Shown: positions 8,823 to 55,267 of the stretch, one piece after another | How the letters are laid out: each line of letters begins with the position of its first letter | How positions within the stretch are numbered: the stretch's first letter is position 1 | Source of the DNA: Mobula hypostoma | Taxonomy: Eukaryota | Length of the DNA: 64,000 nucleotides | Direction of reading: 5' to 3' | NCBI RefSeq assembly: GCF_963921235.1 | Contig: NC_086097.1 | Location: 160,892,001 to 160,956,000, forward strand | Position numbers and translations under genes: made by a program | Notes under the pieces: generated by a model | Databases searched by the model: none | What the model saw: only the letters and a program-made list of their open reading frames with translations | Told to the model about the DNA's origin: nothing

Positions 8823-8990
8823 TCATTTCCCTCCTTTCTTCTTGCACTTTTTGTTGGGTTTCAGTTTGGGTAGAGACCTGTGTTGAACATATTTCGGGGA
8901 CACATATCTGATAGATTTTGCTTTCTTGCCTCGTTTATTGTGCCATTGACGGCAGATGCTATGGGTTGTATAGGCTTTTGACTTAGTCAT
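8823..8990 (-). CDS. Unrecognised 55-aa Lys-rich basic protein, putative spermatid/sperm nuclear basic protein (MTKSKAYTTHSICRQWHNKRGKKAKSIRYVSPKYVQHRSLPKLKPNKKCKKKGGK)
   Basis: Translated by hand. Start context ACAACCATG; 15 K, 4 R, no D/E; MTKS start as in S1; same strand as the other SNBP genes. Upstream tgccttttaagatatt (9091-9106) matches the Z2 promoter at 15 of 16 nt; downstream AATAAA. Confidence 0.7.
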   Translation of the reverse strand: MTKSKAYTTHSICRQWHNKRGKKAKSIRYVSPKYVQHRSLPKLKPNKKCKKKGGK

Positions 8991-11027
8991 GGTTGTGTTT
9001 GTCTTTGACGCAGCTCACCCTGATTTCAGCTGTGTATTACATAGGCTGTGATGCACACAATGATCATCATCATCATTTCTGGTAATTTATTGCCTTTTAA
9101 GATATTAGGATATATTCAGATTATGATGTATTTCCTATGGTGCAAGATCACTGTTTTACAAAGTTATAATTTGTTACATACTTTCCTTTGAGTATTGTGC
9201 ATTACTAAGAACATCAAAAAGTGAATATCAAAAAAATAGAGTAAGAGAAAGATAGAACATGGAAAATTACTGTTGGGCCCAGTGAGTCCACCATGACCAT
9301 CAATTACCCATTTATTTACGCAAGTCCCATTTAAAAAAAACACCCCACAGTTTCATTAATCCCCTTTGGATTTAACCGCTCACTACGTACAAGTAGCAAT
9401 TTAGAGTGTCCATTTAAAATATCATCCCTCACCATCAGGACGAAACTGAGGGAAAGCCACTGAGTCACAGTAAGAACATGCAAGCTCTATGCGGCTCGTG
9501 CCCGAGGTCCGGATTGAACTAGGCCTCTGATATTGAGAAGCAGTGGCTTTTCAAGCCGCACCATTGTGCTGCCCAACTATGTGGCTTGGGGGTAAGGATA
9601 ACTAGACTGTAACAGAATGGGACAGTGCAAAAACAGAAATTCATTGCTTAATAAGGATCAAGTAAGAAAAAGTGAAGTGATAAACATGGTCACTAGCACA
9701 AAAATATTTAAAAGTGCAAATCCAGAAGTGCTTGATCCGAATGCTCAAAGCATTTGTAATATGTTAGATGAATGAGCAGAGCAAATAGATGTAAATGAAT
9801 ACAATATCACTGATATTACGGAGAGCAAGAAACAGTCTGCTGGAGGATTGAGCAGCATCTGATATTGTCCGTTACTATTACGGAGATATGGCTGCAATAG
9901 GATAAAGACTGGGAGCTTAACATCAACCAATATCAACCTTTTAGCAATGATAGGCACAAGAAGAAAAGGAGGTAGAATGGAATATGAATTAGTTCAGTTT
10001 GAAAGTAGGGTTTTAAATTTAAACAAATGAAAATATACAAACGGGTAAAAGGATGCAGAATGAGTTGATAATGATGCATTCGGGACGGGGGGGAACATCG
10101 ACTCAGACCATGAGAGGCCTGCGTCAGGCATTTTCATGCCTTACAAGGCGCAGATTGGAAGTCTGTGTGGGGCACTACTAGAGCAATGTGTGATTAAGTG
10201 CCTTGCCACAGCTGAGGCTCGAACTAGCGACCTTGAGGTAACTAGACAAATGCCTTAACCACTTGGCCACATGCCCAACGCATTGGTGAACTTCATTGAA
10301 ACTCATGACTGCTAACAATTAAGGAACAAATAAAGGAACAGCGGTAGTTATACTGATGCAAAAACACAAAAGGAAAAGCAACATAGGTATGATTTACAAA
10401 AGAAGTTCAGGGTAGCATCAGAATCAAAGAAGCTTATAAAATTGCCAGGAACAGCAAGCTTGAGGATTGGGAGCCATTTAGAATCAGCAAAAATGTTGGT
10501 GATACTAAATTTGATTCTGATTATTGCATATAAAATACATATACAGATTTCAAATTAATTAATTGCTACAACTGCAGCTTGTATTGATCTAAAACGTAAT
10601 GAAAAATATTATTCTCAGCATACTAGTATGTAAATGGTGTTAAGTAAGGAGAGATAGCTAGCTAATAACATAGTCAAATAATAACATGTTCAAACAAGAG
10701 GAGTTAACAGGGAATCTGAATTTATCAATATTTAACAGGAAGAAATGATGATTCTTCCAAGATGAGTATAATTAATTCATTGAATATTATACCTATTCAT
10801 TGCTAATATAAAAACCTGTTTCCACACTTTTCCTTTGAACTTAAATGAGGCCTTGAGCAGGTGAATTCCTTTAGACAGAGAATTAACTGCTTTCCCACAG
10901 GACGTAGACTTACATGGTGAGTGGTAGGGCACTGAGGAGAGTGAGGGATCTGGGAATACGATGCATAGTTACTTGAAAGTGCCATCAGAGGTAGATAGGG
11001 TGCTAAAAGAAAAGCAGGACAAAGGCA

Positions 11028-11880
11028 AGAGAAAATCTGCAGATGCTGGAAATCTGAGCAACACACACAAAATGCTGGAGGAACCTAGCAGGCCAGGCAG
11101 CATCTATGGAAAAACGTACAGTCGACGTTTTGGGCAGAAACCCTTCGGCAGGACTGGAGGAAAAAAAGCTGAGGAGTAAATATAAAAGGTGGAGGGAGGG
11201 AAGAAAGAACCAGTAGGTGATAGGTGAAACCTGGTGAAGTGTCACCCATGTTGGGGTCACTTACTGTGTTTGGTGCTCCTGGTGTGAGCTCCTGGACAGC
11301 AGTGACACCTGTCATAGATTGGGAGACCGCTTCGCCGAGCACCTACGCTTCGTTCGCCGGAACAAGCAGGATCTCCCATGGGCCACCCATTTTAATTCCA
11401 CTTTCCATTTCCATTCTAATGTGTCCATCCATTGCCTCCTCCACTGTCGTGATGAGGCCACACTCAGATTGGAGGAACAACAACCTTATATTCCATTTGG
11501 GTAGCCTCCAACCTGGTGGCATGAACTGTGATTTCTCAAACTTCTGGTAATGCCTCCCAAACCTCTTTCTCCATTCCCCATCCCCTTTTCCCTCTCTCAC
11601 CTTATCTGCTTGCCTGCCCATCGCCTTCTCCCACCTTTTCTTTCTTCCATGGTCTTCTGTCTCTTTCACCAATCAACTTCCCAGCTCTTTACTTCATCCC
11701 TCCCTCTTCAGGTTTCACCTATCACCTGGCTTTCTCTCTCCCCTCCCCCCACCTTTTAAATCTACTCCTCAGCTTTTTTTCTCCAGTCCAGCCGAAGGGT
11801 TTTGGCTCAAAATATCGACTGTACTTTTTTCCATAGATGCTACCTGCTCTGCTGAATTCCTCCAGCATTTTTTGTGTTTT
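11028..11880 (+). mobile_element. Penelope-like element remnant with inverted terminal arms
   Basis: GIY-YIG remnant (GDRFAEHLRFVRRNKQDLP) at 11319-11504; 11062-11233 is an inverted copy of 11709-11876. Confidence 0.8.
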
Positions 11881-11884
11881 ATTG

Positions 11885-12880
11885 AATACAGGAGTTGGGA
11901 TATTATGTTGAAGTTGTAGAAGACCATAAGACATATGAGCAGAATTAGGCCAATTAATCCATGGAGTCTACTCTGCCAATTCATCATGCCTGACTTATTA
12001 TCCCTTTTAAACCCATTCTCCTGCCTTCACTCTGTAGCACTTGACGCCCTGTCTAATCAAAAACCTGTCTTCTTTAAATATACCCATTAACTTGGCCTCC
12101 ACAGCCATCCTTGGCAATGAATACCACAGATTCACCACCCTCTGGCTAAAGAAATTCCTTATCTCTGTTCTGAGCGGATATCCCACGATGTTGAGGCTGT
12201 GCCCCCCGTTCCTAGACTCTCCCACTATAGGAAACATCCTCTCCACATACACTCTACCTAGGCCTTTCAGTATTTGATAGCTTTCAATGAGATTCCCCTC
12301 TCATTCTTCTGAATTCCAGCAAGTACAGGCCCAGAGCCATCAAACGCTCACCAATAAGATGTTGGTGAGGCCTAATTTGAAGTATTGTGTGCAGTTTTGG
12401 TCCTATCTGCAGGAAAGATGTCTATAAGATAGAAAGAGTGCAGAGAAATTTTAGGATGATGTCAGGAACTGAGGACCTGAGTTATGTAGAAAGGCTGAAT
12501 ATGTTAGAACTTTTATTCCCTAGACCATAGGAGAATGAGGGAGATTTGATAAAGGTATACAAAATTATGAGGGTAAATGCAAGCTGGTTTCTTCCACTGA
12601 GATTGCGTGAGACCAGAGCTAGATTCTTGAACATGGGTTAAGGATAAAAGGTAAAATGTTTAAAGGGAACATAAGGGGGAATTTTTTTACTCAGTGGGTC
12701 GGTTAGGGTGTGGAACAAGCTTCCAGAGGAAGTGGTGGATGAAGGTTTGTTTTCAACATTTAAGAGAAATTTGGATAGGTACATGGATAAGATGGGTATG
12801 GAGGGCTATGGGCAGGTACATGTCAATGGGACTAGATAGATTTATATTTCAGATGGGCTAAAGGTTCTGTTCCTGTACTA
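11885..12880. mobile_element. Nested CR1 LINE 3' fragments (minus-strand copy about 11925-12350 inside a plus-strand copy)
   Basis: CR1 ORF2 C-terminal motifs (RMFPIVGESR..GHSL, NFFSQRVVNLW; decayed VRP.L.YCVQFW). Confidence 0.75.
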
Positions 12881-14198
12881 TGACTATATAAACCAGCTAT
12901 GTATTTTAAATCACTTCAAAATCTATATTAGTGTCATATGATTCAGGTCATGTCTTACCAATTATTATTAACAATTATATTAGCTTGCTTGATTTTTTAA
13001 ATGAGTAAAGTGCTAAATAATGGTTAAAATATGTCAACCTCTTGGGCAATTCATCTGCAAATTTCACAGAAGTTATCAAAGCATTCCATCTCCAGTTTTA
13101 TTTTTTCCATTCCCTTTGATGAAGATTAATGCAAAATTGGAAGTTCTTGTTCTTAATTATTAAAATAAATCCATGGGAAGATTACTGCAATGAGCAACCA
13201 TTCCGAGTTTTCACAGATGGTAAAACTGAGAAAGTAAGGAGGCATGGGATCCAAGGGACATTGTTTTGTGGATCCAGAACTGGCTTGCCCACAGAAGGCA
13301 AAGAGTGGTTATAGATGGGTCATATTCTGCATGGAGGTTGGTGACCAGTTGTGTGCCTCAGGTATCTATTCTGGGACCCCTATTCTTCGTGATCTTTATA
13401 AGTGGAGGGATGGGTTAGTAATTTTGCTGATGACACAAAGGTTGGGGGTGTTGTGGATAGTGTGGAGGGCCGTCAGAGGTTACAATGGGACAGTGACCAA
13501 TTGGGTTTCCTCCAGGAGGATGAGAGGTGACCTGATAGAGGTGTATAAGATAATGAGAGGCATTCATCATGTGGATAGTCAGAGTCTTTTTCCCAGGGCT
13601 GAAATGGCTAGCCGAGAGGGCATAGGTTTAAGGTGCTTTGAAGTAGGTACAGAGGAGACCTCTGTTTTTTATGCAGAGAGTGGTGAGTGTGTGGAATGGG
13701 CTGCTGGCAGCAGTGGTGGAGGCGGAATCGATAGGGTCTTTTAAGAGACTCCTGGATAGGTACATGGAGCTTAGAAAAATAGAGGGCTATGGGTAAGCCT
13801 AGGTAGTTCTAAGGTAAGGACATGTTCGGCACAGCTTTGTGGGCTGAAGGGCCTGTATTGTGCTGTAGGTTTTCTATGTTTCTATGTAAAAAGGCCATTG
13901 ATATTGCTCACTTCTACTCATAAGTCTGCTTCGTCATTCTAGTTAAATTCTTTCAACATTTCAGTAGCCAACTTACATTTAATGATTTACATGCAAAAAG
14001 TATTTACAAATAACATTTTTCTAATTTATCATGCAAAGATATTTTCAAGAACAACAACTATTTAGGTAGAAATCTCTTTAAACAGATACTTCTTGACTAG
14101 CTAAGTTCATCTATATTCAGATCTGCAGTTTTATTTGTTTAGCTTTGAAGTAGAATTTGTTAACGTGCGGAATCATCTCATTTCTTTCATGGGAGTTA

Positions 14199-14500
14199 GG
14201 GCGCCACAGTAGTGTAGCAGTTAGCGTGATGCTGTTATAGCTCTGGATGTTCTGGAGTTTGGAGTTCAATTTCAAAGCTGTCTGTCTGTAAGGAGTTGGG
14301 ATATTCGCCCTATGACCACGTGGGTTTCCTCCGGGTGCTCCATTTTCATCCCACAGTCCAAAGAACATACCAGTTTGTAGGTTAATTGGTCATTGTGAGT
14401 TGTCTTGTGATTTGGGCTAGAATATGTCCACTGCTGGGCATTGCAGCTCATTGGGATGAAAGGACCTGGTTCTGCGACCTATCTCTAAATAACTAGATAA
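14199..14500 (+). mobile_element. tRNA-derived SINE
   Basis: A-box-like agtagtgtagcagttagc, B-box-like gagttcaatttc, body gtaaggagtt...gggtttcctccgggtgctcc; further copies at about 54025-54305 and 58533-58790. Confidence 0.75.
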
Positions 14501-14703
14501 CACAATTCACAGCAGCAGCCATATTTGAGTGTATACAATCCTCTTTTCCAAGTTCATATGCACCTAAATATCACAATAAGCAATAAATAGCCCATACTTC
14601 TGTCACAGGTAATTTGCATACAAAATACATTTTCCCCATATTTGAGTATAATTTAAGAATGAAGGTACAAATTGGACAAGTTCTGATACTTGCTTTTTAA
14701 AAT

Positions 14704-14709
14704 TTTATT
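14704..14709 (-). terminator. Poly(A) signal of the S2-like gene
   Basis: AATAAA about 40 nt after the stop codon. Confidence 0.7.
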
Positions 14710-14747
14710 TGTATTCAATTGATAATATCTCTGACGCTTGCTGCCGA

Positions 14748-14984
14748 TCACACATTCTTCTTCAAAGATACTTTTTGATTGAGTGTTTCATTAAGGCTCT
14801 TGTTTTTAACTTTTAAAGTATTATCGAGTTCGTTATCTAACTTCTGAATCTTTGGCGGCCTTCGTTTGGGCTGTACATAACGAGGCCTCCGTTGGATTCT
14901 TGTTCTTCTGCCGCTGACTTTTCTTGCTCGTCGTACTTTTGCTAGCCGTTTGCGGGCACGGTTCTGTCTCCTTGACTTGACCAT
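14748..14984 (-). CDS. Spermatid-specific basic protein S2 homologue (78 aa)
   Basis: MVKSRRQNRARKRLAKVRR...KLDNELDNTLKVKNKSLNETLNQKVSLKKNV aligns with the recalled dogfish S2 (VKSRY...KLDNEVDNTLKAKNKSLNEALKNRLSLRKHV). TATATAA at 15058-15064; AATAAA downstream. Confidence 0.9.
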   Translation of the reverse strand: MVKSRRQNRARKRLAKVRRARKVSGRRTRIQRRPRYVQPKRRPPKIQKLDNELDNTLKVKNKSLNETLNQKVSLKKNV

Positions 14985-15057
14985 AGTTTTCTCTTCACTT
15001 CTGCTTTATCAGCAGGTTATTTTTTATCTCTTTACTAAATGGTTATCAGTCTATTAC

Positions 15058-15179
15058 TTATATAGCGTACACTGTGTTGCAACACAATGTAACTTGAAAT
15101 TTGTATTTTATTCTGCATTACCTTATTTGGTATTGATGTGGATATCATGATACACCACAGGTGGTATATCCTTATTAGG
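15058..15179 (-). promoter_or_regulatory. S2 promoter: TATA box and two CArG boxes
   Basis: TATATAA 15058-15064 (minus strand); CCTTATTTGG 15121-15130; CCTTATTAGG 15170-15179. Confidence 0.7.
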
Positions 15180-16329
15180 TATTGTTGTGATTGGCCCTGC
15201 TTGGTCTTGCTGGTTTGCAGTAGGGACCATTGAAGTTTATTATCTTTTATTCCTGTTGCTATACTGTTTGGATTTCAGGGATTTTGTCCTACGTTTGTTC
15301 TTGTGGGTTATGTTCTAACAATTGCAAAGGATAAACGGTTATTGTGCAATCTCACTACATTAAAAAAAATTCATTTCACTGAGATATACATTGATCATAA
15401 AATAAATTCTATATTATCTTGTAAGGAAAGCTTGTCATATTGAGAAATTGAGCAAAAAAATAACATTTTTGTATGACAGTAATAATATAGATCTTCCAGA
15501 TTACAGGGGACTGGCAATAAATATCTAATTTATAGAGGTACATGATTGGTCCTTATCCAAATACCGAGATTGAAAATCATATGCCTTAGTTATACATTTA
15601 TTTTTATAGTGCGAGTTTTCAGTTGGCAACTAATAAAATTAGAGGAATAATGATCATTTGCAGCTGACAGACCAACTATACCAAATATTAATCTCATATG
15701 ATGTGTATTTAATGCTTAAATAATGTTGTAAATATTTTGTTTGATCATATAATTAATTACAGATTATAAGTAATAGTGTGTGAATGGCTTACGTCGTCAT
15801 GCCGCCACATAATACGTCTGTGTGCACCTCACTTAAAGTAAAAATGAAGTTAGATGTGTTATTCCCAGCTCCACTGGTTTTATGCTTTGGAGTTACAAAA
15901 CATAACAGATGAGGCCTCACAAGCAATTTTGTTTGCAGAAATGAGGAAAGATTCTTAACTTATGCTTTTAACACAATGAGAATTTCACAAACATGAGAAA
16001 GTCTACAGTTGCAAGAAATCCAAAGCTACACACACACACAATGTTGAAGGAACTCAGCAGGTCAGGCAGCATCTATGGAAATGAATAAACAGTCAAAGTT
16101 TCACACTGAGATATTCCTTCAGAACTGGAAAGGAAGGGGGAAGATGCCAGAATAAAAAGGTGGGAGGAGGGGAAGGAGGATAGTGAGAAGATGATAGGTG
16201 AAGCCAGTTGGATAGGAAAGGTAAAGGGCTGGAGAGGAAGGACCATAGGAGAAAGGGAAGGAGGAGGTGACTCGGGAGATAAATCAGAATTCGAATCAAA
16301 ATCACGTCTAATATCACCAGCATATGTCT

Positions 16330-17230
16330 TGAAATTATTTGTTATACAGCTGCAGCACATTGCAATGCATAATAATAGAAACTAACTTACGGTAAGTTTT
16401 ACATATAAAATAGTTAAATTAAGTAAGTGGTGCACAAAAAGGTAGTGAGGTAGTGTCATTCAGAAATCCAATGGCAAAGGAGAAGCAATTCCTAAATCAG
16501 TGAGTGTGTGCCTTCAGGCCCCTGTACCTCCTTCCTGCTGGTAGCAATGAGCAGAGGGCATGTCATGGTCCTTAATGACGGATGCCGTCTTTTTGAGGCA
16601 TCGCCCCTTGAAAATGCCCTGGATGCTGGGGAGGCTAGTGCTCATGATAGAGCTGACTGACTTCACAACCTTCTCCAGCTTATTTTGATCCTGTATTCTA
16701 CGCGCCCCCCCCACCCCAACCCCCATACCAGACTACGATGCTCTCCACGGTAGAAATTTGCGCATGTCTTTGGTGACATACCAGGTCTCCTGAAACTCCT
16801 AATGAAATGTAGCTGCTGTCATACCCTCTTTGTAACTGATATGTGGGGCCCAGGTTAGATCCTCAGGAATGTTGACACCCAGGAATTTGAAATTGCTTAC
16901 TCTTTCAATTTCTGATCCCTTTATGAGGACTGGTGTCTGTTCCCTTATTTTACCCTTTCTGAAGTCCACAATCAGTTCTTTGGTCTTACTGACCTTGAGT
17001 GCAAGGTTGTTACTGTGACACCACTCAACCAGCTGATATTTCTTGCTCCTGGTGTAGAGAGAGTAGAGCACTGGGCTAAGCACATATTCTTAAGGTGCAC
17101 CAGTGTTGACTGTCAAAGAGGTAGAGATGCTATTTCCAATTGACACAGGCTGTGGTCCTCCAGGAGGAAGTCGAGGATCCATTTGCAGAGGGAGGAATAA
17201 TTATGTTAAGTTCTGAGCTGTAGTTAATAA
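16330..17230 (-). mobile_element. Rex1/Babar-like LINE 3' fragment
   Basis: WCHSNNLALKVSKTKELIVDFRK...ERVSNFKFLGV motifs in ORF 16799-17083. Confidence 0.75.
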
Positions 17231-18079
17231 ACAGCAGCCTGACAGAAGTATTAGTATTAATGATAGGCAGGTGAGAGGCCAGAGTGGGGAATAGAAGGAG
17301 GGGGAGCGAAAAGTGTTTTTGCCCAAAGGAGAAATCGATGTTCATGCCATCAGGTTGGAGGCTACCCAGACAGGATATAAGGTGTTGTTCCTCCACCCTG
17401 AGGGTGACCTCACTGTGGCACAAGGAGGCCATGGACTGACATGTCCGAATGGAACGGGAATTGGAATTAAAGTGTTTGGCCTACGGGAAGTTCCGCTTTT
17501 GGCAGATGGAGTGGAGGTGCACAAGAAAGCGGTCCCCTAATTTACAACAGGTCTCACCAATGTAGAGGAGGCTGCATCGGGAGCACCGGACACCATAGGT
17601 GACCCCAGCAGATTTATAGATGAAGTGTTGCCTCACCTAGAAGGCCTTTTCAGGGCCCTGAACAGAGGTAAGAAAGGAGATGAATGGACAGACGTAACAC
17701 CTAGGCAGGTTTTAGGATTTCCTGTTTCTGCTCAGCATCCATTCTTCTAGTTGTTGATACACAGCAACATTCTTAGGAACGTTATCTTCTGGCTGCATGA
17801 ATTTATCTCGCTGCATAAGAGTTTTCCAGGTGTGACCTCACCCAGAGCCTGTATCAGTGCAACATGTATATATTTTTATTTACAGACATGGCCATTCTGG
17901 CCCAAAAGCCCACCCTGCCTAATTATGGCTATGTGACCAATTAACCCCTTTGTCTCTGGAATGTGGAGGGAAACCAGGTCACCTAGGTTCAGTATAGAAC
18001 CAAAAACTCTCTTTGCATAGTTTGTATGGGCAATATTTGCACATCCCCACAGCACTTTATCTCCCACTACCACGGTGAT

Positions 18080-19860
18080 GGCTTCAGAACAGCACAGACC
18101 CTTCAGCGCATGACCTATTAACTTATGTTGACCTTTTAACCTATTCTAACCTTCTTAATCCCACCCCAGCTCTCCACTTTTCTTTTATCCAGGTACAGTA
18201 CCTGTCTAAGTCTCCTAAATGTCCCTAATTTATTTATCTATGCCACCACCTCTGGCTGCGCTTTCCAAGCACCTACCATTGTGTAGAAATCTCTACCTCC
18301 GACTTCCCCCCATACTTTCCTCCATATGATATCTCCTTGTATTAGATACTTTTGACCAGGGAAATTGTCTCTGACTGTCCATTCTAGCTCTGCCTCTTAG
18401 CATCTTATACACTCTATCACGTCACGTCTCGTCCTCTATAGCTTGCTCTATTTATCTATACCCATGAAGCATGCTCTCTAATCTAGGCAGCATCCTGGTA
18501 AATCTCCTCTGCACCCTCTCTAAAGCTTCCACATCATTCCTATAATGGGGTGATCAGAACTGAACAGAATACTCCAAGTGTGGCCTAACCAGAGTTTTAT
18601 AGAACTGCAACGTTATGTCATGGCTCTTAAACTTATCCATCCTATCAACTTGTGCAGGAACTTTGAGGGATCTATGGACATGGACCCCAAGATCCTTCCG
18701 TGCCTCCACATTGCAAAGAATTCTAACATTAACCTTGTATATAGCCTTCAAATTCTAAAATGAATCACTTTACACCTCCACTTTGAACCTCAGCTGCCAC
18801 TTCTCAGGCTACCTCTGCATTCTATCAATGTTCTGTTATAGCCTACAACAAACTTCTATGCTATCCACAACACCACCAACCTTCATGTCATCTACAAACT
18901 TACTAACCCACCTTCCACTTTCTCATCTAAGTCATTTATAAACAAAAACAAAGAACAGGGGTCTCTGAAAAGATCCCTGACGAACGCCACTACTCACTGG
19001 CCTCCAGGCAAAACATGTTCCATCTATTATCACTTTCTGCCTTCTGTGGGCAAGTCCATGCAGTCAACTTTCTTTAGATCCCATATTTATTGGCTTTCTG
19101 AATGAGCCTGCTATGGGGAATTTACTAAGGTCCACATTCACTACACACCACTTCCTCATGGAACTCATTCATACTCGTCAGGCATGGCCTGCACCTTACA
19201 AAGCTATGCGAACTATCAATAATCAGACTAAGCTTCTCCAAATGCTCATAAATCCTCTCTAAGAATCTATGAATCCTCCAATAGTTTGCCTACCACTGAT
19301 GTAATTGACTACTGACCATTTACTACTCTGTACTTCACAAGATTATCTCCATTATCTTTCCTGAGCAAAAGAATAACATTTGCTGCCCTCCAATCGAATG
19401 ATTCTACTCCTGTGGTAGTGAGGATGCAAAGATCATTGCTAAATATACTGCAATTTCTTCTCTTGTTTCCAGTCTAGTCTCGGAGACTTACAGTATCTAT
19501 CTTAATGTTTTTTCAGAAATTCAAACACATTCTTTTGCTCAATGTTGACACGTTCCAGCATGTTAGCCTGTCTACGCTGTCCTAACTTTCATTAAGTTCC
19601 CTCTCACTGGGGAAAACTTAAGCAAGTTAAGAACCTCCCCAGCTCCTCCAACTCCAGGCATGTTTTTTCTTTCATCCCTGATCAATTCTACCCTCACATT
19701 AGTCATCTTCTGGTTCTTCTCGCACATATAGAAAGCTTTGTGGTTTTCCTTAATCCTACTTGCCAAGACCTTCTCATATTCCCTTCTGGTTCTCCAAAAT
19801 CCATTCTTCAGCTTTATGGCTCTTTGCTGCTTTTTAAAGTTTCCCTAATCTTCAAGTTTC
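18080..19860 (-). mobile_element. Decayed CR1 LINE
   Basis: DLGVHVHRSLKV and KTLVRPHLEYSVQF motifs; many stops. Confidence 0.75.
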
Positions 19861-20954
19861 CCACTACTCTGTGTTGCTTTGTAGACATGAATTTTAATAA
19901 TAATATCTTACTTATAGAACACCTTTCATACAGATGATGTAGTTCAAAGTGTTTTACAATGGAATAAAGTACGAACATAGAATAAAAGATAAAAGTCTTG
20001 GACTATATTTTTTGTGTGACTGACTGTTGGTATTGTGTTTTGCACCTTGGCCACAGAGTAAAACTGGAATTCATGTACGGTTGAATGACAAGTAAATTTG
20101 AACTTGAAAAAAGATGTTAATTAAAAGCCAGGTTAAATAAATAGTTTTAAAATGGCATTTAAAAGTGTCAGTGTATAGTTTTAGGTGTGAAATTCCACAG
20201 TTCAAAAGAGCTGACTTGCCAATTATCTTTAGAGGGAGCTTGTTTGAATTTAAGAGACTGATGGAAGAAGAGCTGTGAGATTGAGCAGGATTATAAAACA
20301 AAAGCAATGCAAGAATGTACACAGGCCTCAGACTATTGAGAACTTTAAATCCAAGTAAGAGAACTTTAAAATCAATTCTAAAAGATGCAGGAAACCAATG
20401 GAGTAACTACGATGGGAGTGATATGCCCTCTCATCCTGGTTTTAGTTGAAATTCTAGCAGCAGTATTCTGAATGAGTTTGTCAATAGATTGCTTTGGAAG
20501 GCCAGTAAAAAGCGCATTGCAAGTTATCTCGTCTATTCCATATGAAGGTGTGAATTAATTTTTCAGCATCATTATGTGACAGAAATAGACACAACTTTGC
20601 AATATTTTAGTTTGATTTTAGCTTGACGTCTTCTTTTATTTCTTTGGCTTTCCCCACCCTTACAGCTCCTGCTTTAGACTGGAATATACTTTTGTTGGGA
20701 ACCATGAAAAATCACTTTAAAAGTCTTCCACTATTCTTTAACTGTCCCAAAATATTGCCTGTGTCCTCAGTGTACACTAGCAGCTCCTCCCTCATCCCAA
20801 TGTAGTCTATCATAAACATGAGAAAGTCTGCAAATGCTGGAAATCCCAACGTAACACACAGAAAATGCTGGAGGAACTCAGCAGGTCAGGCATCATCTAT
20901 GGAAATGAATAAACAGTCAACGTTTCAGGCTGAGACCCTTCTTCCTAACTGAAA

Positions 20955-43934: not shown

Positions 43935-45949
43935 GCTTCAGCCTTCAGCCACTGACCGCTTTGGAAGTGTTCAGTCTCTAGTTTTATAGACTTTCCAGCA
44001 TCCTGCCCTATTGTCATGTCATCATGATGGTCATGTAGGAGTTCAAAGTAAACTTATTATCAAAGTACATACATGTTACCATATACTACTACCTTAAGAT
44101 TCATTTTCTTGCTGGCATTTATAGGAATAAAATGAATACTGTTGAATTTACTGAAAATTATACATAAACAGTTAAAAACTGACAAATAACCAACGTGCAA
44201 AAGAAATCAAACGGTGCAAAACAACCTAATGCTGAGAGCAAGAGTTCCAGAATCCTTGAAAGCGAGTCAGCAAGAAGGTTCTAGAATCCGTTCAAAGTAG
44301 TGGTTGCTGAAGTTATCCATGTCGGTTCAAGAGCCTGATTGTTGTAGGATATTAACTGTATCTGAACCTCAATGTCAAAGTAAAATTTATTATCAAAGTA
44401 CGTATATATATTACCAAATACTATCTTAAGATCCATTTTTTTGCAGGCATTTACAGGAAAATAAAGAAATACAACAGAATTTATGAAAAAATATTCATAA
44501 ATGTACACTGACAAACAAACAATGTGCTAAAGATAATGATTTGTGTAAATAAGAAATAATACTGAGAACATGAGCTGTAAAGAGTTCTTGAAGAGTTTGT
44601 GTGTAGAATCAGTTCATAGTTATGGTGCACAGATGAAGTTATTCACGCTGATTCAGGAGCCTGGTAGTTGTAGGGTAATTGTTCCTGAACCTGGTGGTGT
44701 GTGCTCTGTCACTGCATCGCTGCTGGGTTGCTAATGAGTCCATATGCACAATCCCTGTACCATTGATTGGAGAAGTTAAGTTTCACCAAGAGAAAAAAAA
44801 GTTGTAATAAAGGAGAGAGCAAAGAAGACAAAAGAAGAGTAAGAATAATATAAAGCTTTTAAATATGATTTATTAACTGCTGGACCAAGATACCATAGTT
44901 TCATTTGTTCTGTTTCTGAACTGGAACTAATGGCTAGCACTGAAGGAACATGCAATCAAGGGGATACTGGCCCTGTTAAATACCAACCCTATCTTTCTGC
45001 AAATTCAGCAATTTCTTGTGCAAAAGTCACAAGGCAGGTTAATTTATGGAGATATGAACATCATAAAAGTATTTCTTTCTAATCATAAGTGGCTAGGTCA
45101 TTCCAGACATATCTTTACAGCTTAAATCTGTTATTTTCTCAGCAAATTCTATGTATTTGTGTCATTATTTCAGAGCTGCTGTCCTGAAATCAATCAATAA
45201 CATAAAGTAAAAACAATAAGGATCACAGCAACATTCCCAGAAAACAGCACAATTATTCTACTCCATTATTATAATTCCTTTTTTTTTTTCACCAATGACT
45301 GCATTGGTGCTGCTTCCTGCACCCATGCTGAACTCGTTGACTTCATCCACTTTGCCTCCAATTTCCATCCTGCCCTCAAATTTACCTGGGAAAGAGGGAG
45401 AAGAGGGGAGCAGTAGTGATAGGGGACTCGACAGTCAGAGAAACAGACAGAAGATTCTGTGGATGTGAATGGGACACCCAGATGGTATGTTGCTTCCCAT
45501 GTACCACGGTCAGGGACATCTTGATCATGTCCACAGCATTTTGGAGAGGGAGAGAGAGCAGCCAGATGTCTTGGTACAGATTGGTACCAATGACATAGGA
45601 AGGAAAAGCAAAGAGGGCCTGAAAAGAGAATTCAGAGAACTTGGCAAAAAACCAAGAAGCAGGACCTCAAGGGTACTAATTTCTGGATTGCTGCCTATTC
45701 CATACGCCAGTAAGGGTAGAAACAGGATGAATTGGCAGATAAATGTGTGGCAGTGAAACTGGTGCAGGGGGCAGGGCTTCAAGTTCTTGGGTGATTGGGA
45801 TCTCTTCTAGGGGGGAATGACCTGTACAAAAGTGACACCTGGGAGCAATATTCTCATGGACAGCTTAGTTAGGACTCTTGGGAAGGGTTTAAACTAATTT
45901 GGCCAGGGGCTAGGAACTGGAGTGAAGGGACTCAGGATAGGACACTGAA

Positions 45950-48420
45950 GGGAATGCTGGCCCTTGAAGCCTAATCCTGGGGATGCAAGAACCCTCTGTA
46001 AGATCCTCACTGCTGTTGCTTGTGGACTCTGAAGCCCGTTGAATCACCCCTGTCACCAAAAAGGTCTTAGGAGTCATCCTCAAAGTAAAGTCCGGAGGAG
46101 GTAACACCATCCAAACCGGCCAAAATCCCCAATATTTAGAAGGACTTAGAGGAGGTTCTCAGCAAGGGAAAGGCCTCGACTCTTCCACTACACTGACCCT
46201 ACAATTGTACCATGGAACTGCTGCCTGGTCCTTGTCCTCTACAGGGTCGTTTGTACGTGCTCTCAGGCCTGGAGAGAAATGCCATGGAGGAGTATATAAA
46301 GGAAGGTCTTGCCATGGACTTTATTAGTCCCTCCACCTCACCAGCTGGCACAAGCTTCTTCTTTGTACAAAAGAATGATGGGAGCCTGCTGTCGTGCATT
46401 GATTACAGGGGGTTAAACTGCATAATGACCAGGAATGGCTACCCCCTTTCTCTTATGAATATGGCTTTCAAGATGCTCCAAGGAGTGAGGGCATTCACAA
46501 AATTAGATCTCCGGAGTGCCTACAATCTGGTCTGTATCAGGGAGAGCAATGAGTGGAAGATGGCATTTAATAGACCAATAGAACACTACAAGTACCAGGT
46601 TATGTCCTTCAGCCCAGTGAACACCCCAACTGTTTTCAAGGCCTTTATAAACACTGTGCTCCGGGATACTCTCCATAAGTGTGCCCTCGTCTACTTGGAT
46701 GGTACCCTAATCTTCTCAAAGTCCATGGAGGAGCACATCACTCACATCAGAGACATTTTAAAGAGGCTACTAGACCATGGACTTTACGTCAAGTTGGAGA
46801 AGTCTGAGTTTCATGTGAGGACTGTTTTATATTTGGGTTTCATCATCCTTAATGGTAATCTCAAGTTGGACCCTACCAAGACCCAGGCAGTCAGAGACTG
46901 GCCACCACCATCCAATATCAAACAGGTCCAACGACTCTTGGGATTTGCTAACTTCTACCAGAAGTTCATTAGGAATGCTGATGGCTCTAACTAAGAAATC
47001 TACAGGCCCTTTTGTCTGTACTACTGAAGCAGAAGCTGCTTTCACAGAGCTTAAACAGCCATTTACAACAGCTCCCATCTTTGTTTCTCCTAACCTGGAC
47101 CTTCCCTTCATTGGGGAGGTGGACACCTCAGACATCAGAGTAGGTGCTGTCTTGTCTCAACAGTTACCTTCAGACAGCAAACTGCACCCGTGTGCATTCT
47201 TCTCCAGGCAGCTATCCCTGGCAAAGAGAAACTATGACATCGGGAATCAGGAGTTTCTTGTGCTTAAGTTAGCTTTGGAGGAATGGCTTCACTGGCCCAA
47301 GGGGGCCAAGAACCCTTTTATCATTTGAACTGACCATTAAAACCCGGCCTATATTCAGGAAGCCAAGAGGCTGAATTCCAGGCTGGCCAGGTGGCCTTTG
47401 TTTTTTAACCAGTTTAATTTCATCCTGACCTATCAACTGCGGTTGAAGAACCAGAATCCAGATGCCCCGTCCCATAAATTTGATGAACTGGAACGAGAGG
47501 TTGTCCTGTACCAGGTCTTCAGGATCCACGGATCCCCAGTGGACATTGTCTCAGATCATGGTAAACAATTCACATCACATTTCTGGAAGGCTCTCCGTAA
47601 ACTGATAGGAATAACAGCAAGCCTTTCCTCTGGGTTTCATCCACAGTCCAACGGTCAGATGGAGCAGACCATTCAAGATTTAGAATGTACCTTGAGATGC
47701 CTGGCCTTGGAAAGACCTGAGCAGTGGTGTGACCATTTAATGTGGGCAGAGATCACCCACAACACTGTACAGCAATCGGTGCATGGGATGTCTCTATTCA
47801 AGTGCCAGTTTTGTTATCCTCCACCTCTTTCTAGAGCAAGAAACCAAAGTTGGGGTCCCTGAGGAAGAAGAACTTGTCCAATGCTGCAGGCAGTAATGGA
47901 TGGCGGCAAGAGAGATTTTGCTGGCCTCCATGCGGAGACCAAGGCAAGCCAAAGGAGAAGTCTGCGATCCGCGTTACAGCCTGGGCAACAGGTCTAACTG
48001 TCCACTTAATATTTGCCTCTCTGAGTGGAATCTAGAAAGTTGGCACCCAAATTCTTTGGTCTCTTTGAGATCCTGAGGGAAGTAAACCCAGTGGCTTACA
48101 CCCTGCAGCTCCCCAAGACCCTAAAGATCAACCCCACCTTCTACATCTCTGAACTAAAACCTGTCTGCACCAGCCCCTTGGCCCCACAACTATCGCCTCC
48201 CCACCACCCAGGATTATTGAGGGGGAACAGGCTTCATGGGGAAAAGACTTTTGGACTCGTGTAGTGCTGGAGGTGTTCAGCAATACCTGGTGGACTGGAG
48301 GAAAGGTGCTGGGTGCCAGAAAGAGACATCGTGGATCCGAATCTCTTTCACGATTACCATTACCAACTCTCTGAGCAACCAAGGCCATCAGGGGTCAGTT
48401 TGCAACTACGCCAGCTTCCG
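45950..48420 (+). mobile_element. Degenerate Gypsy/Ty3 chromovirus pol (RT, RNase H, integrase, chromodomain)
   Basis: CIDYRGLN, FTKLDLRSAYNLV, VYLDG (mutated YLDD), EVDTSDIRVGAVLSQ, IVSDHGKQFTS, SSGFHPQSNGQME, RLLDS...QQYLVDW. Confidence 0.9.
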
Positions 48421-49209
48421 AGATTTAAACACTCTAATTCTCCAGAATACAGATAGCTGGCATGGCCTCTTTAAGGGCTTAGGACATTCCCATTAATCGA
48501 TAATCATGTGTTAGGCGCCAAGAATTGGGTACTTAAGGAAAACATGAGCATAAGTTCTGTGCTCAATAGTAAGCCTACTAGTGATATCGTCCAGCATTTC
48601 TTTTGTGCTCTGATCCAGTTTGATAACATGTCTCAAATCTAGCTTCGGATACCCCAGCATTTGGTTTCAAACCATCTTCATCAAGGACTCTCGTCAATGG
48701 ACTGTAATGTATGGATCTATTTCTTTTAGACCAATGACTTTCCCCCTTAGCACTACATACTAATATGTTGTCTGCGCATGCGCTGATGTCTATGCATGCA
48801 CATTGTTCTCTCCCTCTCTCACTCTCTCCTGGCAACTTTTGTGCATTTAAAAGCACCAAAGCTCCAACAATTCCTGTCTCACCATATTAATGTCATACAG
48901 TGATTTACATTCCTATGATTCTGAATCGTCCCCCTGTTTTGTAGGCATTTACAAAATTTCATCCTATGCTGCATCTCTATTCATAGATTGATCTGAAACC
49001 CAGATTCTTGTTTATTTTTTCAGCACAATCTCTTCTGAAAGCCACCTATTTCCAAATTTAAATGTGATTGTGGCCCTTTCCACATCAACTGGTGCTGCTG
49101 CAGAAATTCAACCAGATGCCAAGTTGGTGGCTTTCAGTGGTGACTCTTTGCATTCAACTCCGAAGAAAATCATCAGATATTCCCATTTAGGACTACAGCT
49201 GAATGCAGA

Positions 49210-52200
49210 GTCGCAGTCAGGGGTACTTCAAAGTTCATATAGGAGCTGGTTGTGGATTGTGGGAGGAATGGAGACAGGCTAACCTCTATTGATACCAATG
49301 GATCTGGGGTTGAGAGGGCGAACAGCTTTAAGTTCCTCAACATCCACATCACCAAGGATCTCACGTGGTCTGTGCACACCAGCTGTGTGGTGAAAAAGGC
49401 ACAACAGCGCCTCTTTCACTTCAGACGGTGGTGGAAGTTTGGTATGGGCCCCCGAATGCTAAGAACTTTCTACAGGGGCAAAATTGAGAGCATCCTGGCT
49501 GGCTGCATCACTGCCTGGTATGAGAACTGAACCTCCCTGAATCGCAGGATTCTGCAGAGAGTGGTGCGGACAGCCCAGCGCATCTGTAGTTGTAAACTTC
49601 CCATGATTCAGGACATTTACAAAGACAGGTGTGTAAAAAGGGCCGGAAGGATCATTGGGGACTGGAGTCACCCCAATCACAATCTATTCCAGCGGCTACC
49701 ATCTGGGAAACGGTACTGCAGTATAAAAGCCAGGACCAACAGGCTCCAGGCCAGCTTCTTCCACCAGGCCATCAGACTGATAAACTCCTGCTAATTTGAG
49801 TGTACTCTATATTACATTGACTGTTCTATTTATTATAAATTACTATGATTGCACGTTGCACATTTAGATGAAGATTTTTACTCCTCATATCTGTGAAGGA
49901 TGTAAGAAATAAGGTCAGTTCAATATGTCACCATATACAACCATGAGATTCATTTTCTTGTGCACATACTCAATAGATCCAATAACCATAATAGAATCAA
50001 TGAAAGATCACACCCAACTGGGCAAACAACCAGTGTGCAAAGGACAACACACTGTATAAATACAAAAAAAGAAATAATAATAATAAACAAATAAGCAATA
50101 AATACCGAGAGCATGAGATGAAGAGTCCTCGAAGGTGAGTACATAAGTTGTGGGAACATTTCTGTGATGGGCCATTAAGTTGAGTGAAGTTATCCCCTTC
50201 GATTCAAGAGCCTGATAGTTGAGGGGTAGTTGTTCTTGAACCTGGTGGTGCGAGTCCTGAGGTTTCTGTACCTTCTTCCTGATGGCAGCAGTGAGAAGAG
50301 AGCCTGAATTGGGTGGTAGAGGTTGCTGATGATGAATGGTGCTTTCCTGCAATAATGGCCTGTATAGATGTGTTCACTGGTTGGGAGGGATTTAACTGTG
50401 ATGGACTGGACCGTATCCACTACATTTTGGTAGGATTTTCTGTTCAAGGACATTGGTGTTTCCATACCAACCTGTGACGCAGTCAGTCAATATATTCTTC
50501 ACCACACATCTATAAACGTTTGTCAAAGTTTTGGATGTCACGCTGAATCTTTGCAAATGCCTCGGGAAGTAGAGGTGCTGCTGTGTTGTCTTTGCTGTAC
50601 TTCTGTGCTGGGCCTAGGACAGGTCCTCTGAAATGATAACACCGAGGAATTTAAAGGTGCTGATCATCTCCACCTCATTGGCTCATGGACCTCTAGTTTC
50701 CTCCTCTTGAAGTCAATAATCAGCTCTTTGATCTTGCTGACATTGAGGAAGAGGTTTTTGTTATGGCACCACTCAGCCAGATTTTCAGTCTTCCTCATAT
50801 GCTGATTCATCACCACCTTTGATTCAGCCTACGACACCAATGTCATCAACAAACTTGATAGTGGTGTATTTCCATCTCAGGCCAATGTCAGACAGGCACT
50901 GGAGGCGTTGAACACCATGATCAGCAGTCTTGAAACGAATTCTGATATCTTCCTTGTCTTTGCAGGTTTTCAACTAGGCCAGCGTGAAGAAGTCTCTGTC
51001 GACTACCATCGACATATCCCCTGTGGAACCAGAGGAGCCAACAAACTTGTCTACTGTTATGCCACCATCAACAATGCTCACCATACCATCCCATACCTGC
51101 ACTTTGTAAAGTCTGATCACCTGGCTATGCTTCTACTGTCTCCATATAGGCAGAGACTAACACCATAGAACCAGTGGTGAAGACCAAGAACGTATGGTCA
51201 AGGGAGGCAAAGGAGCATTTATAGGATTGCTTTGAATTGGTGGGCTGTACTATATACAGGGATTCATCTTTTGATCTGATTGAAAACACCCCACTTTTCA
51301 CCAACTTCATCAACACCTGTATGGATGAGTGTGTGCCTTCGATAACATACCGGGCATACCCAAATCTAAAGCCATGGATGAACTAGGAGATTCGTAGTCT
51401 GCTGCGGGCTGTATCTGTGACATTAAGACTGCTGATAGAGAACTATACAAGAAATCCAGGTACACCCTACGGAAGGCTATCTTAAGAGCAAAAAAACAAT
51501 TCTGATTGCAGTTAGAGGTGGAATTGGATGCATGTTGGCTCTGGCAGGGTTTGCAGGTTATTACTTCCTACAAGGCAAAACCTTGATGCTTCACTTCCAT
51601 ATGAGCTAAATGACTTTTATGCATGCTTTGAAAGGGAGTAAACCTGTGTTTACACCTGTGTAAATCCCTGTCACATCTGATGACCCTGTAATCTCTGTCT
51701 CGACATTATAATTTCTTTCATGAGAAATAACCCTTCTAAGTCATCAGGCCCTGATGGTGGAGCTGGTAGGGCATTGAAAACCTGTGACAACCAACTGGTG
51801 GGAGATTTTCAAGGACATCTCTCACTGCTGTAGTTGGAGGTTTCCACCTACTTCAAAAAGGTGACGATCATGGCATCGCCCAAGACGAGCAGGATGATCT
51901 GCCTCAACACTTATCACCCACATCTACTGTGCTGAAGTGCTTTGAGGGGTTGGTCATGGCTAGGATCAACTCCTGCCTTAAATAAGGACATGGAGCCTCT
52001 GCAATTTGCCTATTGCCACTATAGGTCCACTGCAGATGCAACCTCATTGGTTCTCCACTTGGCATTGGATCACCTGCTGTTTATTGATTACAGCTCAGAG
52101 TTCAACACCAGCATACCCTCAGTACAAATTAAAAAGTTCCAAAACCTGGGCCTCTGTACCTCCCTTTGCAACTGGATCCTTGATCATTTCATCAGAAGAC

Positions 52201-53135
52201 CACAGAAATGCAAATTGGAAATAACATCTCCTCCTCACTGACAGTCAACGTGGGCATAGCTCAAGGATGCGTGCTTTCCCCATCTGCTCTACTCTCTACA
52301 CCCGCAACTGGGCACAGATCAAATGCAGATGACACAAATATTGTTGGCAGAATTCCAAATGGTGATCAGGAGGTATCTAGGAGAAGGATTGATCAACTGG
52401 TTGAGTAGTGTCGAAACAACAACCTTGCACTCAACATTGGTAAGATTGTGGACCTGATTGATTGTAGATTTCCGGAAGTAGAAGTCACGGGAACACACTG
52501 CAGTCCTCATCGAGGTTTCAGCAGTGTAAAGGGTGAGCAGTTTCAAGTTCCTGCGTGTCAGTATCTCTGAAGATCTGTCCTGGGCCCAAAATATTGATTC
52601 AATTACAAAGAAGGCACGACAGTGCCGATACTTCATTAGGGGTTTGAAGAGACTTGGTATGTCACAAAAGACTCTCACATGGACTCTCAGATGTACCATG
52701 GAGAGCATCTAACTGGTTGCATCATTATCTGTTCCAAAGGGGCCACTGCACAGGATCGGAAAAAGCTGCAAACAGCTGTAAACTCAGCCATTTCCAACAT
52801 GGGCAGCAGACTCCCCAGTATTGAGGACATCTTCAAAAGGTGATGCCTCAAAAAGGTGGCATCCATCATTAAGGACCCCCATCACCCAGGACATGCCCTC
52901 TTCTCATTGCTCCCATCAAGAAGGAGACACAGGAACCTGCAGACATACACTCAATGTCTTAGAAACAGTTTCTTCTCCACCGCCATCAGATTTCTGAATG
53001 GAAAATCAATCCATGTACACTACCTCACTATTTATTTTTTGCTCTTTTTGCACTACTTGCTTAATTTATTTTATATATTTTTATTGTATTTTATAGATTT
53101 TTATTATGTATTGTAATTTATCTGATTCTGATTCT
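49210..53135. mobile_element. Cluster of Rex1/Babar-like LINE fragments in both orientations
   Basis: VERANSFKFL, KKAQQRLFHFRR, IDYSSEFNT and HPGHALFSLLPS motifs. Confidence 0.8.
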
Positions 53136-53173
53136 GAAACCTTAAAGTAAATTTATTATCAAAGTCTATATAT

Positions 53174-53906
53174 CAGGGGTCCCCAACCTTCTTTGCAGCG
53201 CGGACTGGTTTAATAATGACAATATTCTTGCAGACCGGCCGACCGGTGGGGGGAGGTATATTCAAGTAGGGTTAAACTCACCTCAACATGTCTTTTACAG
53301 TAAGGGTTGCCAATTTTCTCATCCCCAAATAAGCGACAAAACTAGCAGTCCTGGGACACTTTACCCCAGGAAAGACTACCATGACCATGCAAGCCTTGCG
53401 CGGGCACGTGTGCGCATGCGTGCTGATTTTTTTCCACAAATCGGTTTTGCCTTTATCTTCCCGACTACACTGCACATACATTATTTCTACTTTATATAGG
53501 CTGTGTATTTATCATATCATTCCTGCTTTCACTATATGTTAGTGCTATTTTCAGTTTTATGTGTTAGTTGGTATGATTTGGTAGGTTACTTTTTGGGTCT
53601 GGGAACGCTCAAAAATTTTTCCCATATAAATTAATGGTAATTGCTTCTTCACTTCACACCATCTTGGCACAAAAGGTTTCATAGGAACGCTCTACCCTAG
53701 CGGGGGAAATACGGGACAAGGGCAGTCCCATATGGGACAAACCAATTTAACCCAATATATGGGATGTCCCAACAAATACAGGACTGTTGGCAACCCTATG
53801 TTCAAGTTCAATAGTGCGTGACAGGGAATGAGGAAAGGTGCAGCTGACTCATATCATTCCCCCGTGGCCTGGTACCGGTCCGCAGCCCGGTGGTTGGGAA
53901 CCGCTG
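53174..53906. mobile_element. hAT-type non-autonomous element with an internal second TIR pair
   Basis: TIRs caggggtccccaacc / ggttgggaaccgctg; 8-bp TSD ctatatat at 53166-53173 and 53907-53914; internal agggttgccaa (53303) and ttggcaaccct (53787). Confidence 0.88.
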
Positions 53907-54967
53907 CTATATATGATACCATATACTACCCAGGATTCATTTCCTTATGGGCATTCACAGTAGATACAAGGAAATACAATAGAATCAAGAAAAACAAAGA
54001 CAGATAAACAACCAATGTGCAACGGGGTGGTGTGGTAGCTTAGTGGTTAGCACTATGCTTTTCAGTACAGATTACCTGGGTTTAATTCCCACCACAGCCT
54101 GTAAGGAGTTTGTATGTTCTCCCTGTGACTGCATGGGTTTCTGCTGGGTCCTCTAGTTTCCTCCCACAGTCCAAAGGCGTACCGATTGGTAAGTTCTTTG
54201 GCCATTGTAAACTGTCCTGTGATTAGGCGAGGATTAAATCGGGGAATTGCTGGATGGCGTGGTTCGTAGGGCCATGAGGGCATATTCCATGCTATTTCTC
54301 AATTTAAAACAACAGAAAACAAACTGTGCAAACACATAAATAAAGAACAGATAATATTAAGACATGAGTTGTGGAGTCCTTGATAGTGAGTCCATAAGTG
54401 TGGAATCAGTTCAGTGTTGAGGTGAGTGTGGTTATCCACATTGCTTCAGGAGCCTGCTGGTTGAGGGGCAATAACTGTTCCTGAACCTGGTAGCATTGGA
54501 TGTAAGGCTCCTGTACCTTTTTCTTAATGGCAGCAGAGAGAAAAGACCGTGGATGGTGGGGGCCCTTGCTGGTGGATGCTACTTTCTTGTGGCAGTGCTA
54601 CTTGTAGTTGTATTAAATGGTGGGAGGGCTTTTCCTGTGATGGAATGGACTGTATCCACTACTTTTTATAGGTTTTTCCATTCATGGGCATTGGCCTTCC
54701 CATAGCAAGCTGTGACAGAACCTGTCATGATAGTCCACACTGTGCCTCAGCAGAAGTTTTTTAAAGTTTTAGATGTAAATTTGAATTTGTGCTAACTTCT
54801 AAAAAAAATAGAGGCACTGCCGTGCCTTCTTTGTAGTGACTCTTACGTGCTAGTCCTAGGACAAATACCCTGAAATGATAACACTAAGGAATTTTAAAGT
54901 TACTGATCCTCTCCAACTCAGTTCAGTACATTAGAGTCAAGGTACACAATAGTTATTTGATTTGAAT

Positions 54968-54973
54968 TTTATT
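54968..54973 (-). terminator. Poly(A) signal of the Z1-like gene
   Basis: AATAAA about 130 nt after the stop codon. Confidence 0.65.
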
Positions 54974-55102
54974 CAAAATGACTTCAGTGTAAGAAGCAGC
55001 AGGAGTATTGAATTCAGGGAGTACTTCATCACAAACAGTGAATGTTTCTTAAGAAAACTCATTAGGAATGGTTCTTGTTGGATGAAGACTGACAAGCAAT
55101 TC

Positions 55103-55267
55103 TTAACATCTTCTTCTCCCTCTTCTTCTTCTTTTTGGCAATCTTCTAATGTGGCATCTTCTTCGATATATTTTAGACCTGTCCCTCTTAGTTAGACATA
55201 ATCGTCGTAAGTGCCGCCTCCGTAAATAACAAGTTTCTGTCTTCTTAACTGGCTTAGAGCGCTTCAT
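55103..55267 (-). CDS. Cysteine-containing protamine Z1 (scylliorhinine Z1) homologue, 54 aa ([54 protein letters not shown])
   Basis: Translated by hand. [11 protein letters not shown]...KRD-x-SK-x-YRRR-x-H-x-RRLPK...C matches the recalled dogfish Z1. Confidence 0.92.

Follow-up and report, generated by a model that had tools for sequence, protein, structure and literature searches.

A probable tandem cluster of genes for sperm nuclear basic proteins within, and antisense to, a TRPN1 intron of Mobula hypostoma

Mammalian protamine and transition protein genes are organized in a common domain, PRM1-PRM2-(PRM3)-TNP2; in dogfish, biochemical knowledge of the S and Z proteins goes back decades, and an origin from histone H1 or H5 is usually assumed for sperm basic proteins. 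Stepwise protein transitions characterize catshark spermiogenesis (PMC11607694), the mammalian transition proteins have been reviewed (PMC9258737), and protamines quite often arise from H5-related precursors according to a 2026 review in which the term 'ribosomal protein' does not occur (PMC13251019). Here we analyzed a 64,000-nucleotide (nt) stretch of the Mobula hypostoma genome (contig NC_086097.1, positions 160,892,001 to 160,956,000 of the forward strand; hereafter, the window), for which an earlier note had proposed six co-oriented genes for sperm chromatin proteins, namely the dogfish-type Z1, Z2', Z2, S1 and S2 and one new gene. We consider it highly probable that genes for nuclear basic proteins of spermatids and sperm are clustered in tandem in the window, placed antisense in an intron of TRPN1 and presumably serving a joint spermatid programme. 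In order of transcription, this cluster would read from a Z1-like gene (g6) through a truncated Z2' (g5), a Z2-like gene (g4), S1 (g3) and an S2-like gene (g2) to a gene derived from the ribosomal protein eL29 (g1).

Regional scans covered the 264 kb around the window, which belongs to a contig of 256 Mb in a genome of 3.48 Gb. All six open reading frames (ORFs; Table 1) were found as proposed—intronless, uninterrupted, on the minus strand and highly basic, with lysine and arginine together accounting for 35–51% of their residues—and four of them indeed encode fewer than 60 amino acids (aa). The five complete genes each have an AATAAA 34–142 nt past the stop codon, in agreement with the earlier note; of the TATA boxes that it also listed for them, those of g2, g4 and g6 are clear and those of g1 and g3 weak. 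Its description of transposon remnants on either side of every ORF was accurate for most of the locus, with repeats lying 0.1–1.2 kb from each gene, and failed between g4 and g5, where none was detected. Since five genes would share one strand by chance with P = 0.06, co-orientation alone is a weak signal; the strong one is the set of shared regulatory motifs considered below.

The entire cluster is nested, in antisense orientation, in a single intron of TRPN1/NompC. This nesting is one of three features that the earlier note overlooked, the others being the eL29 origin of g1 and the truncated-duplicate status of Z2'. The intron begins with GT and ends with AG, and its flanking exons are consecutive and in phase 0, so that one intron contains the whole cluster. 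For the upstream exon (L017:7162-7260), 2.7 kb to the left of the window, the best alignment is with residues 163–192 of NompC (5vkq), the exon that follows the intron is given in Table 1, and later exons correspond to residues 334–363, 423–464 and, for the channel exon, 1147–1464, all in genomic order. Because single ankyrin exons match many other ankyrin proteins too, the identification of the host as TRPN1 rests on exon colinearity and on the channel exon, which matches NompC with E = 2.5e-93, compared with 5e-12 for the next best family, TRPC. The channel domain apparently occupies one open exon of about 1.4 kb (L027:9012-10000 to L043:1-436, G000:C1 at ~161.055–161.056 Mb), unlike the ankyrin repeats, which are scattered over small exons across 200 kb. 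To our knowledge, TRPN1 has been lost in amniotes. Nesting in this gene provides a synteny anchor by which short, fast-evolving genes of the kind that escapes automatic annotation could be located in sharks, rays and chimaeras, and perhaps in fishes and amphibians. Catshark possesses a Trpn gene, and the word 'protamine' does not occur in the main text of the paper that reports it (PMC11979771).

The S1 assignment of the earlier note was borne out by database homology. A profile search with g3 and g2 scored three proteins among 34 candidates, and full-length homology to one of these, the spermatid-specific protein S1 of Scyliorhinus canicula (P13275, SSS1_SCYCA; E = 1.1e-29, 82% identity), confirmed g3 as the orthologue of dogfish S1. 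The other two were uncharacterised Callorhinchus milii proteins (A0A4W3KFX7 and A0A4W3HC88), 59–65% identical to g3; with matches to both dogfish S1 and chimaera proteins, the S1 family spans the chondrichthyans. Both Callorhinchus proteins have more cysteines than elasmobranch S1. In the sources reached, dogfish S1 and the Callorhinchus sequences were known as proteins; the present locus adds the gene itself together with its neighbours and control elements. No DNA copy of g3 was found elsewhere in the genome. As for g2, it is a paralogue of S1: it scores 16.4 bits against the hidden Markov model (HMM) of the S1 family, a value that none of 1000 shuffles attained, its pairwise score with g3 is 107 as compared with 49.6 ± 7, and the two proteins have a C-terminal segment in common. 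Paralogy of this kind fits the S2 identity assigned earlier, as do length and motifs; this identity is the likely one; the name itself is our assumption, none of the three profile-matched proteins being called S2.

Both g4 and g6 encode short, arginine-rich (37% in each case) and cysteine-containing proteins, with three and four cysteines, respectively. Because searches gave no scored relative for either, the labels Z2 for g4 and Z1 for g6 draw on composition, length and motifs ascribed to the dogfish proteins (scylliorhinines), to which we presume them to correspond. The arginine codons of g4 alternate between CGC and AGG, as those of the Z2 cDNA reportedly do. That g4 makes a polyadenylated mRNA in the germ line follows from two 5'-truncated copies of 124 and 213 nt on other contigs (Table 1): both stop about 22 nt past the AATAAA, in an A-run, and hence end at one poly(A) site. 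The two retrocopies (100% and 85% identical) differ in age. For g6, no such retrocopy or other DNA copy was found elsewhere in the genome. A weak match to g6 (L005, G000:C59:6504860-6504946; 63% identity over 27 residues, E = 0.36) has neither start codon nor CArG box and may be what is left of a decayed copy of g6. An ESM Atlas match of g6 to protamine P1 scored 0.80, which was too low to be used. The remaining protamine-like element, g5, is a recent partial duplicate of g4 and probably a pseudogene: its 205 bp reproduce the core promoter of g4 together with codons 1–37, identical to 42403-42607 at 204 of 205 positions, and then give way to unrelated DNA; the CArG boxes, the final codons and the 3' end are missing. 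With neither upstream boxes nor a 3' end, it reduces the six genes initially counted to five genes and one probable pseudogene. Two further dogfish sperm proteins, Z3 and S4, had no evident counterpart in the 264 kb; their genes may lie elsewhere or be absent from this lineage.

The earlier note had listed g1 as a new gene; the ORF proved real, and what had gone unnoticed is its descent from the ribosomal protein eL29. ESM Atlas placed g1 beside the 60S protein L29 (score 0.90), a lead that was then tested. In a PDB search with g1, all 32 matches were eL29; the strongest (E = 5.8e-6) covered residues 1–55 without a gap. The parent rpl29, on contig C58, has introns after codons 12 and 34, and g1 reads across both. 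Aligned without gaps, 23 of 55 residues are identical (42%), a level that none of 100,000 shuffles reached; at the three successive codon positions, 35, 34 and 23 of the 55 codons agree. Synonymous divergence has reached saturation (pS = 0.82), whereas pN is 0.36, and the 55 codons are free of indels and stops. Intron loss, saturated synonymous sites, the pN value and an open frame jointly argue for an old retrogene held under selection, and these comparisons show g1 to be an old intronless retrocopy of rpl29. After residue 35, the conserved central motif of eL29 has largely disappeared, and two cysteines have been gained. Against Pfam, g1 matched no family at E up to 1, and a genome search with PF01779 (L29e) did not return it; nor did the parent's 3' untranslated region (UTR) resemble that of g1 significantly (144 of 2000 shuffles scored as high). 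At the protein level, g1 as a paralogue of S1/S2 was not significant (194 of 1000 shuffles), and no DNA copy of g1 was found elsewhere in the genome. A representative-library search with g1 gave a single match, an 827-aa repetitive protein, which was discarded as spurious, its score being the sum of eight weak stretches.

What ties the genes to one another are their control elements. Taking the 300 nt upstream as the promoter, we searched for perfect CArG boxes, CC(A/T)6GG, the site bound by SRF. Nineteen occur in the 264 kb, eight of which lie in the promoters of g2 (two), g3 (two), g4 (three) and g6 (one); at the background rate, a box in four of five promoters would arise with P of about 1e-7. 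The same region holds 13 ATG-initiated ORFs of at least 20 aa with at least 33% lysine plus arginine, and g2, g3, g4 and g6 are the only ones with a CArG box upstream. In g1, a CArG-like box with one mismatch lies in a context identical to that of one g4 box at 22 of 26 positions. A genome search returned one SRF and four MEF2 matches. No CArG box was present in the 1.4 kb upstream of the first coding exon of the parent rpl29. Two lone perfect boxes in the TRPN1 intron (18539 and 56441) stand upstream of no basic ORF, and a second, CRE-like promoter motif (CRE, cAMP response element) was dropped as it had no rank in the unguided scan described below. Moreover, g1, g2, g3 and g4 have a motif after the poly(A) signal in common: among 877 background sites, none scores as high as g1 or g3, and six score as high as g2. 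Its exact pattern occurs at three sites in the whole genome (3.5 Gb)—g3, g4 and one of the g4 retrocopies. From the CArG boxes and the shared 3' motif we infer that the five genes may be co-regulated, which gives the co-regulation claimed by the earlier note its support in sequence.

Such a locus suggests the following course of events. In haploid spermatids, the genes would be switched on together by a CArG-binding factor, most likely SRF, for which one gene was detected. The cluster mRNAs would be stored and then released stage by stage, possibly via the shared 3' element. S1 and S2 would displace the histones as intermediates; arginine- and cysteine-bearing protamines would next replace S1/S2 and lock the nucleus with disulfides, and g1, out of ribosomal service, would act as a chromatin protein in the same programme.

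Like the mammalian PRM1-PRM2-TNP2 domain, the cluster links transition-type and protamine-type genes that are co-oriented and probably co-regulated. Unlike that domain, its genes are intronless, nested in TRPN1 and equipped with CArG boxes in place of the CRE/CREM elements of mammals. The analogy to PRM1-PRM2-TNP2 drawn in the earlier note thus stands as a functional likeness and does not extend to homology, of which we found none: a Pfam scan of the six ORFs gave sub-threshold matches only, for g2 and g4, and no protamine or TNP match, while the best Atlas score was the 0.80 of g6. A search of the genome with Protamine_P1 was without match, as was its control. The likeness is likely convergent, in which case the locus would parallel the PRM-TNP2 domain of mammals without common descent. 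With both waves of proteins and shared CArG boxes in one locus, control of spermatid genes becomes testable in an animal with a stage-ordered testis. In the literature searched (the 1980s dogfish papers lie outside it), we found no description of the genes of the dogfish proteins, of their linkage or CArG boxes, of their position inside TRPN1 or of any sperm gene derived from eL29; the sperm chromatin gene cluster is likely real and apparently undescribed as a synthesis, and single genes of it have likely been annotated earlier.

Several observations weigh against a cluster of sperm chromatin genes under joint control. A word-seeded protein search with g4 raised one candidate, which did not score at E up to 10, and the same search with g6 raised none. 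There is no significant protein similarity of g1, g4 and g6 to the S1 family or to each other. The only box of g1 is of the one-mismatch kind, which occurs 0.38 times per 300 nt. An unguided scan, run because the CArG motif had first been noticed by eye, put the CArG core at the top of 34,177 candidate 9-mers (p = 1.9e-6, uncorrected), which becomes borderline, at about 0.06, after correction. The 3' motif is missing from g6, 255 of the 877 background sites scoring as high, and the lysine and arginine make-up of g1 equals that of its parent and so lends a chromatin role of g1 no direct support.

One alternative extends the favoured explanation and does not replace it, namely that the cluster was itself built by tandem duplication of the eL29 retrogene, with S1, S2 and perhaps Z2 drifting from lysine towards arginine and g1 as the least changed member. 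Since g1, g2, g3 and eL29 begin alike, ungapped comparisons were made from the start codon. Over first and second codon positions, g3 and the parent rpl29 match at 50 of 120 sites, where 34.6 would be expected (p = 0.0007); p is 0.002 when codons 1–4 are dropped and 0.005 with local shuffles. The signal sits in codons 5–30 (p = 0.0002, for a range picked after looking), and several of the changes turn histidine or glutamine into arginine with the first base kept. Prefixes of the proteins anchored at the initial methionine gave p values of 0.002–0.025 in five of five S1-family sequences—which are kin and not independent—and the controls g4 and g6 gave no prefix signal. However, g2 showed no signal against rpl29, codons 31–61 of g3 were null, and the zero register only tied for first among 41 shifts. 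Likewise, the S1-family profile reached p = 0.03–0.10 against the parent, the S1-family HMM was matched or exceeded there by 1137 of 2000 shuffles and had no match among PDB chains at E up to 10, g2 had no eL29 match in PDB, and the shared motif at the 3' end of the parent was not significant (164 of 877). The idea stays alive because the 3' motif, held in common with g2–g4, and the promoter box context tie g1 to the cluster, by duplication or conversion. On balance, we regard descent of S1/S2 from eL29 as conceivable and lean somewhat against it, and the same tentative standing applies to the duplication history as a whole: an rpl29 retrocopy would have entered the TRPN1 intron in antisense orientation, come under CArG/SRF control in spermatids and given rise by tandem copying to S1, S2 and perhaps Z2, with g1 as the surviving intermediate. 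If true, cartilaginous fishes would have made their means of histone replacement out of a ribosomal protein; sperm nuclear proteins of vertebrates would then include some of non-histone descent, and one locus would still show the steps of the series.

A second alternative concerns g1, which may have remained ribosomal: a testis-type paralogue ('eL29L', comparable to RPL39L of mammals) that inserted into a sperm-gene domain already in place and took over the control elements there. Full-length ungapped homology, purifying selection and a composition unchanged from the parent agree with this, and testis-specific ribosomal paralogues are known from mammals (PMC10093926). Such a function is nevertheless unlikely given the 42% identity, the largely lost central eL29 motif, the two gained cysteines and the failure of both the Pfam L29e model and the PF01779 genome search to score g1. 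The mammalian testis paralogues, moreover, are far closer to their parents. We find it reasonably probable that g1 is an added lysine-rich, cysteine-bearing chromatin protein. As a full-length retrocopy of the gene for eL29 (PF01779), it can be compared with testis ribosomal paralogues such as RPL39L and RPL10L; it is, however, far more diverged (42%), scores below the Pfam model and belongs to a cluster of sperm chromatin genes with which it shares control elements. The cluster resembles the histone H1/H5-derived protamine-like pathway in its small, disordered and highly basic sperm proteins and differs from it in that the only ancestor traceable here is a ribosomal protein. The eL29 retrogene represents a concrete alternative to a histone H1/H5 origin.

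It is improbable that the genes are real but unrelated passengers of a big intron, their CArG boxes and 3' motif being functionless relics of duplication or conversion. It is compatible with this that the g1, g4 and g6 proteins resemble neither one another nor the S1 family, and ten-base AT-rich motifs can outlast duplication. Yet the boxes recur two to three times per promoter in DNA that is otherwise unalignable, and the g2 promoter of a relative appears to spare them: in a contig from public sequencing data, two of 17 listed differences (out of 25 in total) lie within the 183-nt segment containing the two boxes (15020-15202), neither of them in a box, and the other 15 fall in the 108 nt beyond (15203-15310). 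This contig comes from a comparison of four runs (X1, X3, X11 and X17) over 8450-15350; altogether, pieces of the S1 stretch occur in 16 public runs, of which none reaches half its words and none is on record as RNA. One X11 contig spans g1 in another organism, with 116 differing letters over 8450-10075, and X1 contigs cover g1 and g2; X1 also holds S1 words and is RNA by guess, without a tissue label. The stop codon of g1 is TAA in X1 and X11 and TGA here, and g2 of X1 has an in-frame 6-nt insertion. These comparisons support, at the sequence level, real and conserved genes. Not counted as evidence were the next to absent cover (0–0.65) by X1 of unique intron bins beside g1 and g2, where the DNA-like X11 is even, and the next to absent cover of g1 or g2 by X17 and by X3, which holds S1 words. 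The X11 contig covers both sides of a repeat-bearing segment, 10076-10279, and skips the segment itself, which is thus probably a lineage-specific insertion.

That the ORFs other than S1 are chance basic frames or dead pseudogenes is highly improbable: none of the six cluster proteins is present in an exact look-up of a 15-billion-protein collection, g4 and g6 have no scored relative, chance ORFs rich in lysine and arginine occur in the region and g5 is a true instance, but the paralogy of g2, selection on g1, the g4 retrocopies and the promoter boxes of g2, g3, g4 and g6 speak against it.

Table 1. Coordinates of the cluster, its control elements, the g4 retrocopies and the host gene (window positions unless a contig is given).
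Feature	Position	Strand	Description
g1	8823-8990	-	55 aa, lysine-rich ORF, eL29 retrocopy with two gained Cys
g1 3' end	8625..8681	-	AATAAA, then ATTAAA followed by the shared 3' motif of the cluster
g1 promoter	9093..9102	-	CArG-like box, one mismatch
g2	14748-14984	-	78 aa, S1 paralogue, likely S2
g2 promoter	15059..15179	-	TATA 15064; perfect CArG 15121-15130, 15170-15179
g3	25676-25942	-	88 aa, orthologue of dogfish S1 (P13275)
g3 promoter	26116..26223	-	perfect CArG 26116-26125, 26214-26223
g4	coding sequence 42382-42513, element 42206..42513	-	43 aa, Arg/Cys protamine-like; 3' UTR end near 42206
g4 promoter	42562..42724	-	TATAAAA 42567; perfect CArG at 42629, 42687, 42715
g5	ORF 43818-43934, element 43818..44028	-	38 aa, recent partial g4 duplicate; probably a pseudogene
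g6	55103-55267	-	54 aa, Arg/Cys protamine-like; AATAAA at 54973
g6 promoter	55404..55477	-	perfect CArG 55468-55477 and a one-mismatch box
g4 retrocopy L039	C9:111106256-111106379		100% identity
g4 retrocopy L038	C71:55103930-55104142		85% identity
TRPN1/NompC intron, window part	1..59060	+	61,800 nt in total, phase 0; start 2,740 nt to the left of the window
TRPN1 ankyrin-repeat exon	59061..59174	+	38 codons; aligns to Drosophila NompC 194-233

Beyond the cluster, much of the window is repetitive, 45% of it having a repeat copy inside the surrounding 264 kb. A 250-aa ORF at 110-862 (+) shows a weak GIY-YIG match (E = 0.0008) and represents a Penelope-like retroelement remnant, copies of which recur in the window. 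At 46212-47328 (+), a reverse transcriptase ORF (PF00078, E = 1.7e-21) belongs to a remnant resembling a long terminal repeat retrotransposon and split over several frames. Between g3 and g4 lie two broken copies of a long interspersed nuclear element in opposite orientations (32300-34800, minus strand; 37500-40200, plus strand), as well as a tandem array of a 67-nt unit in 4.4 copies (40820-41118), ahead of which stands a degenerate 7-nt array (40644-40752).

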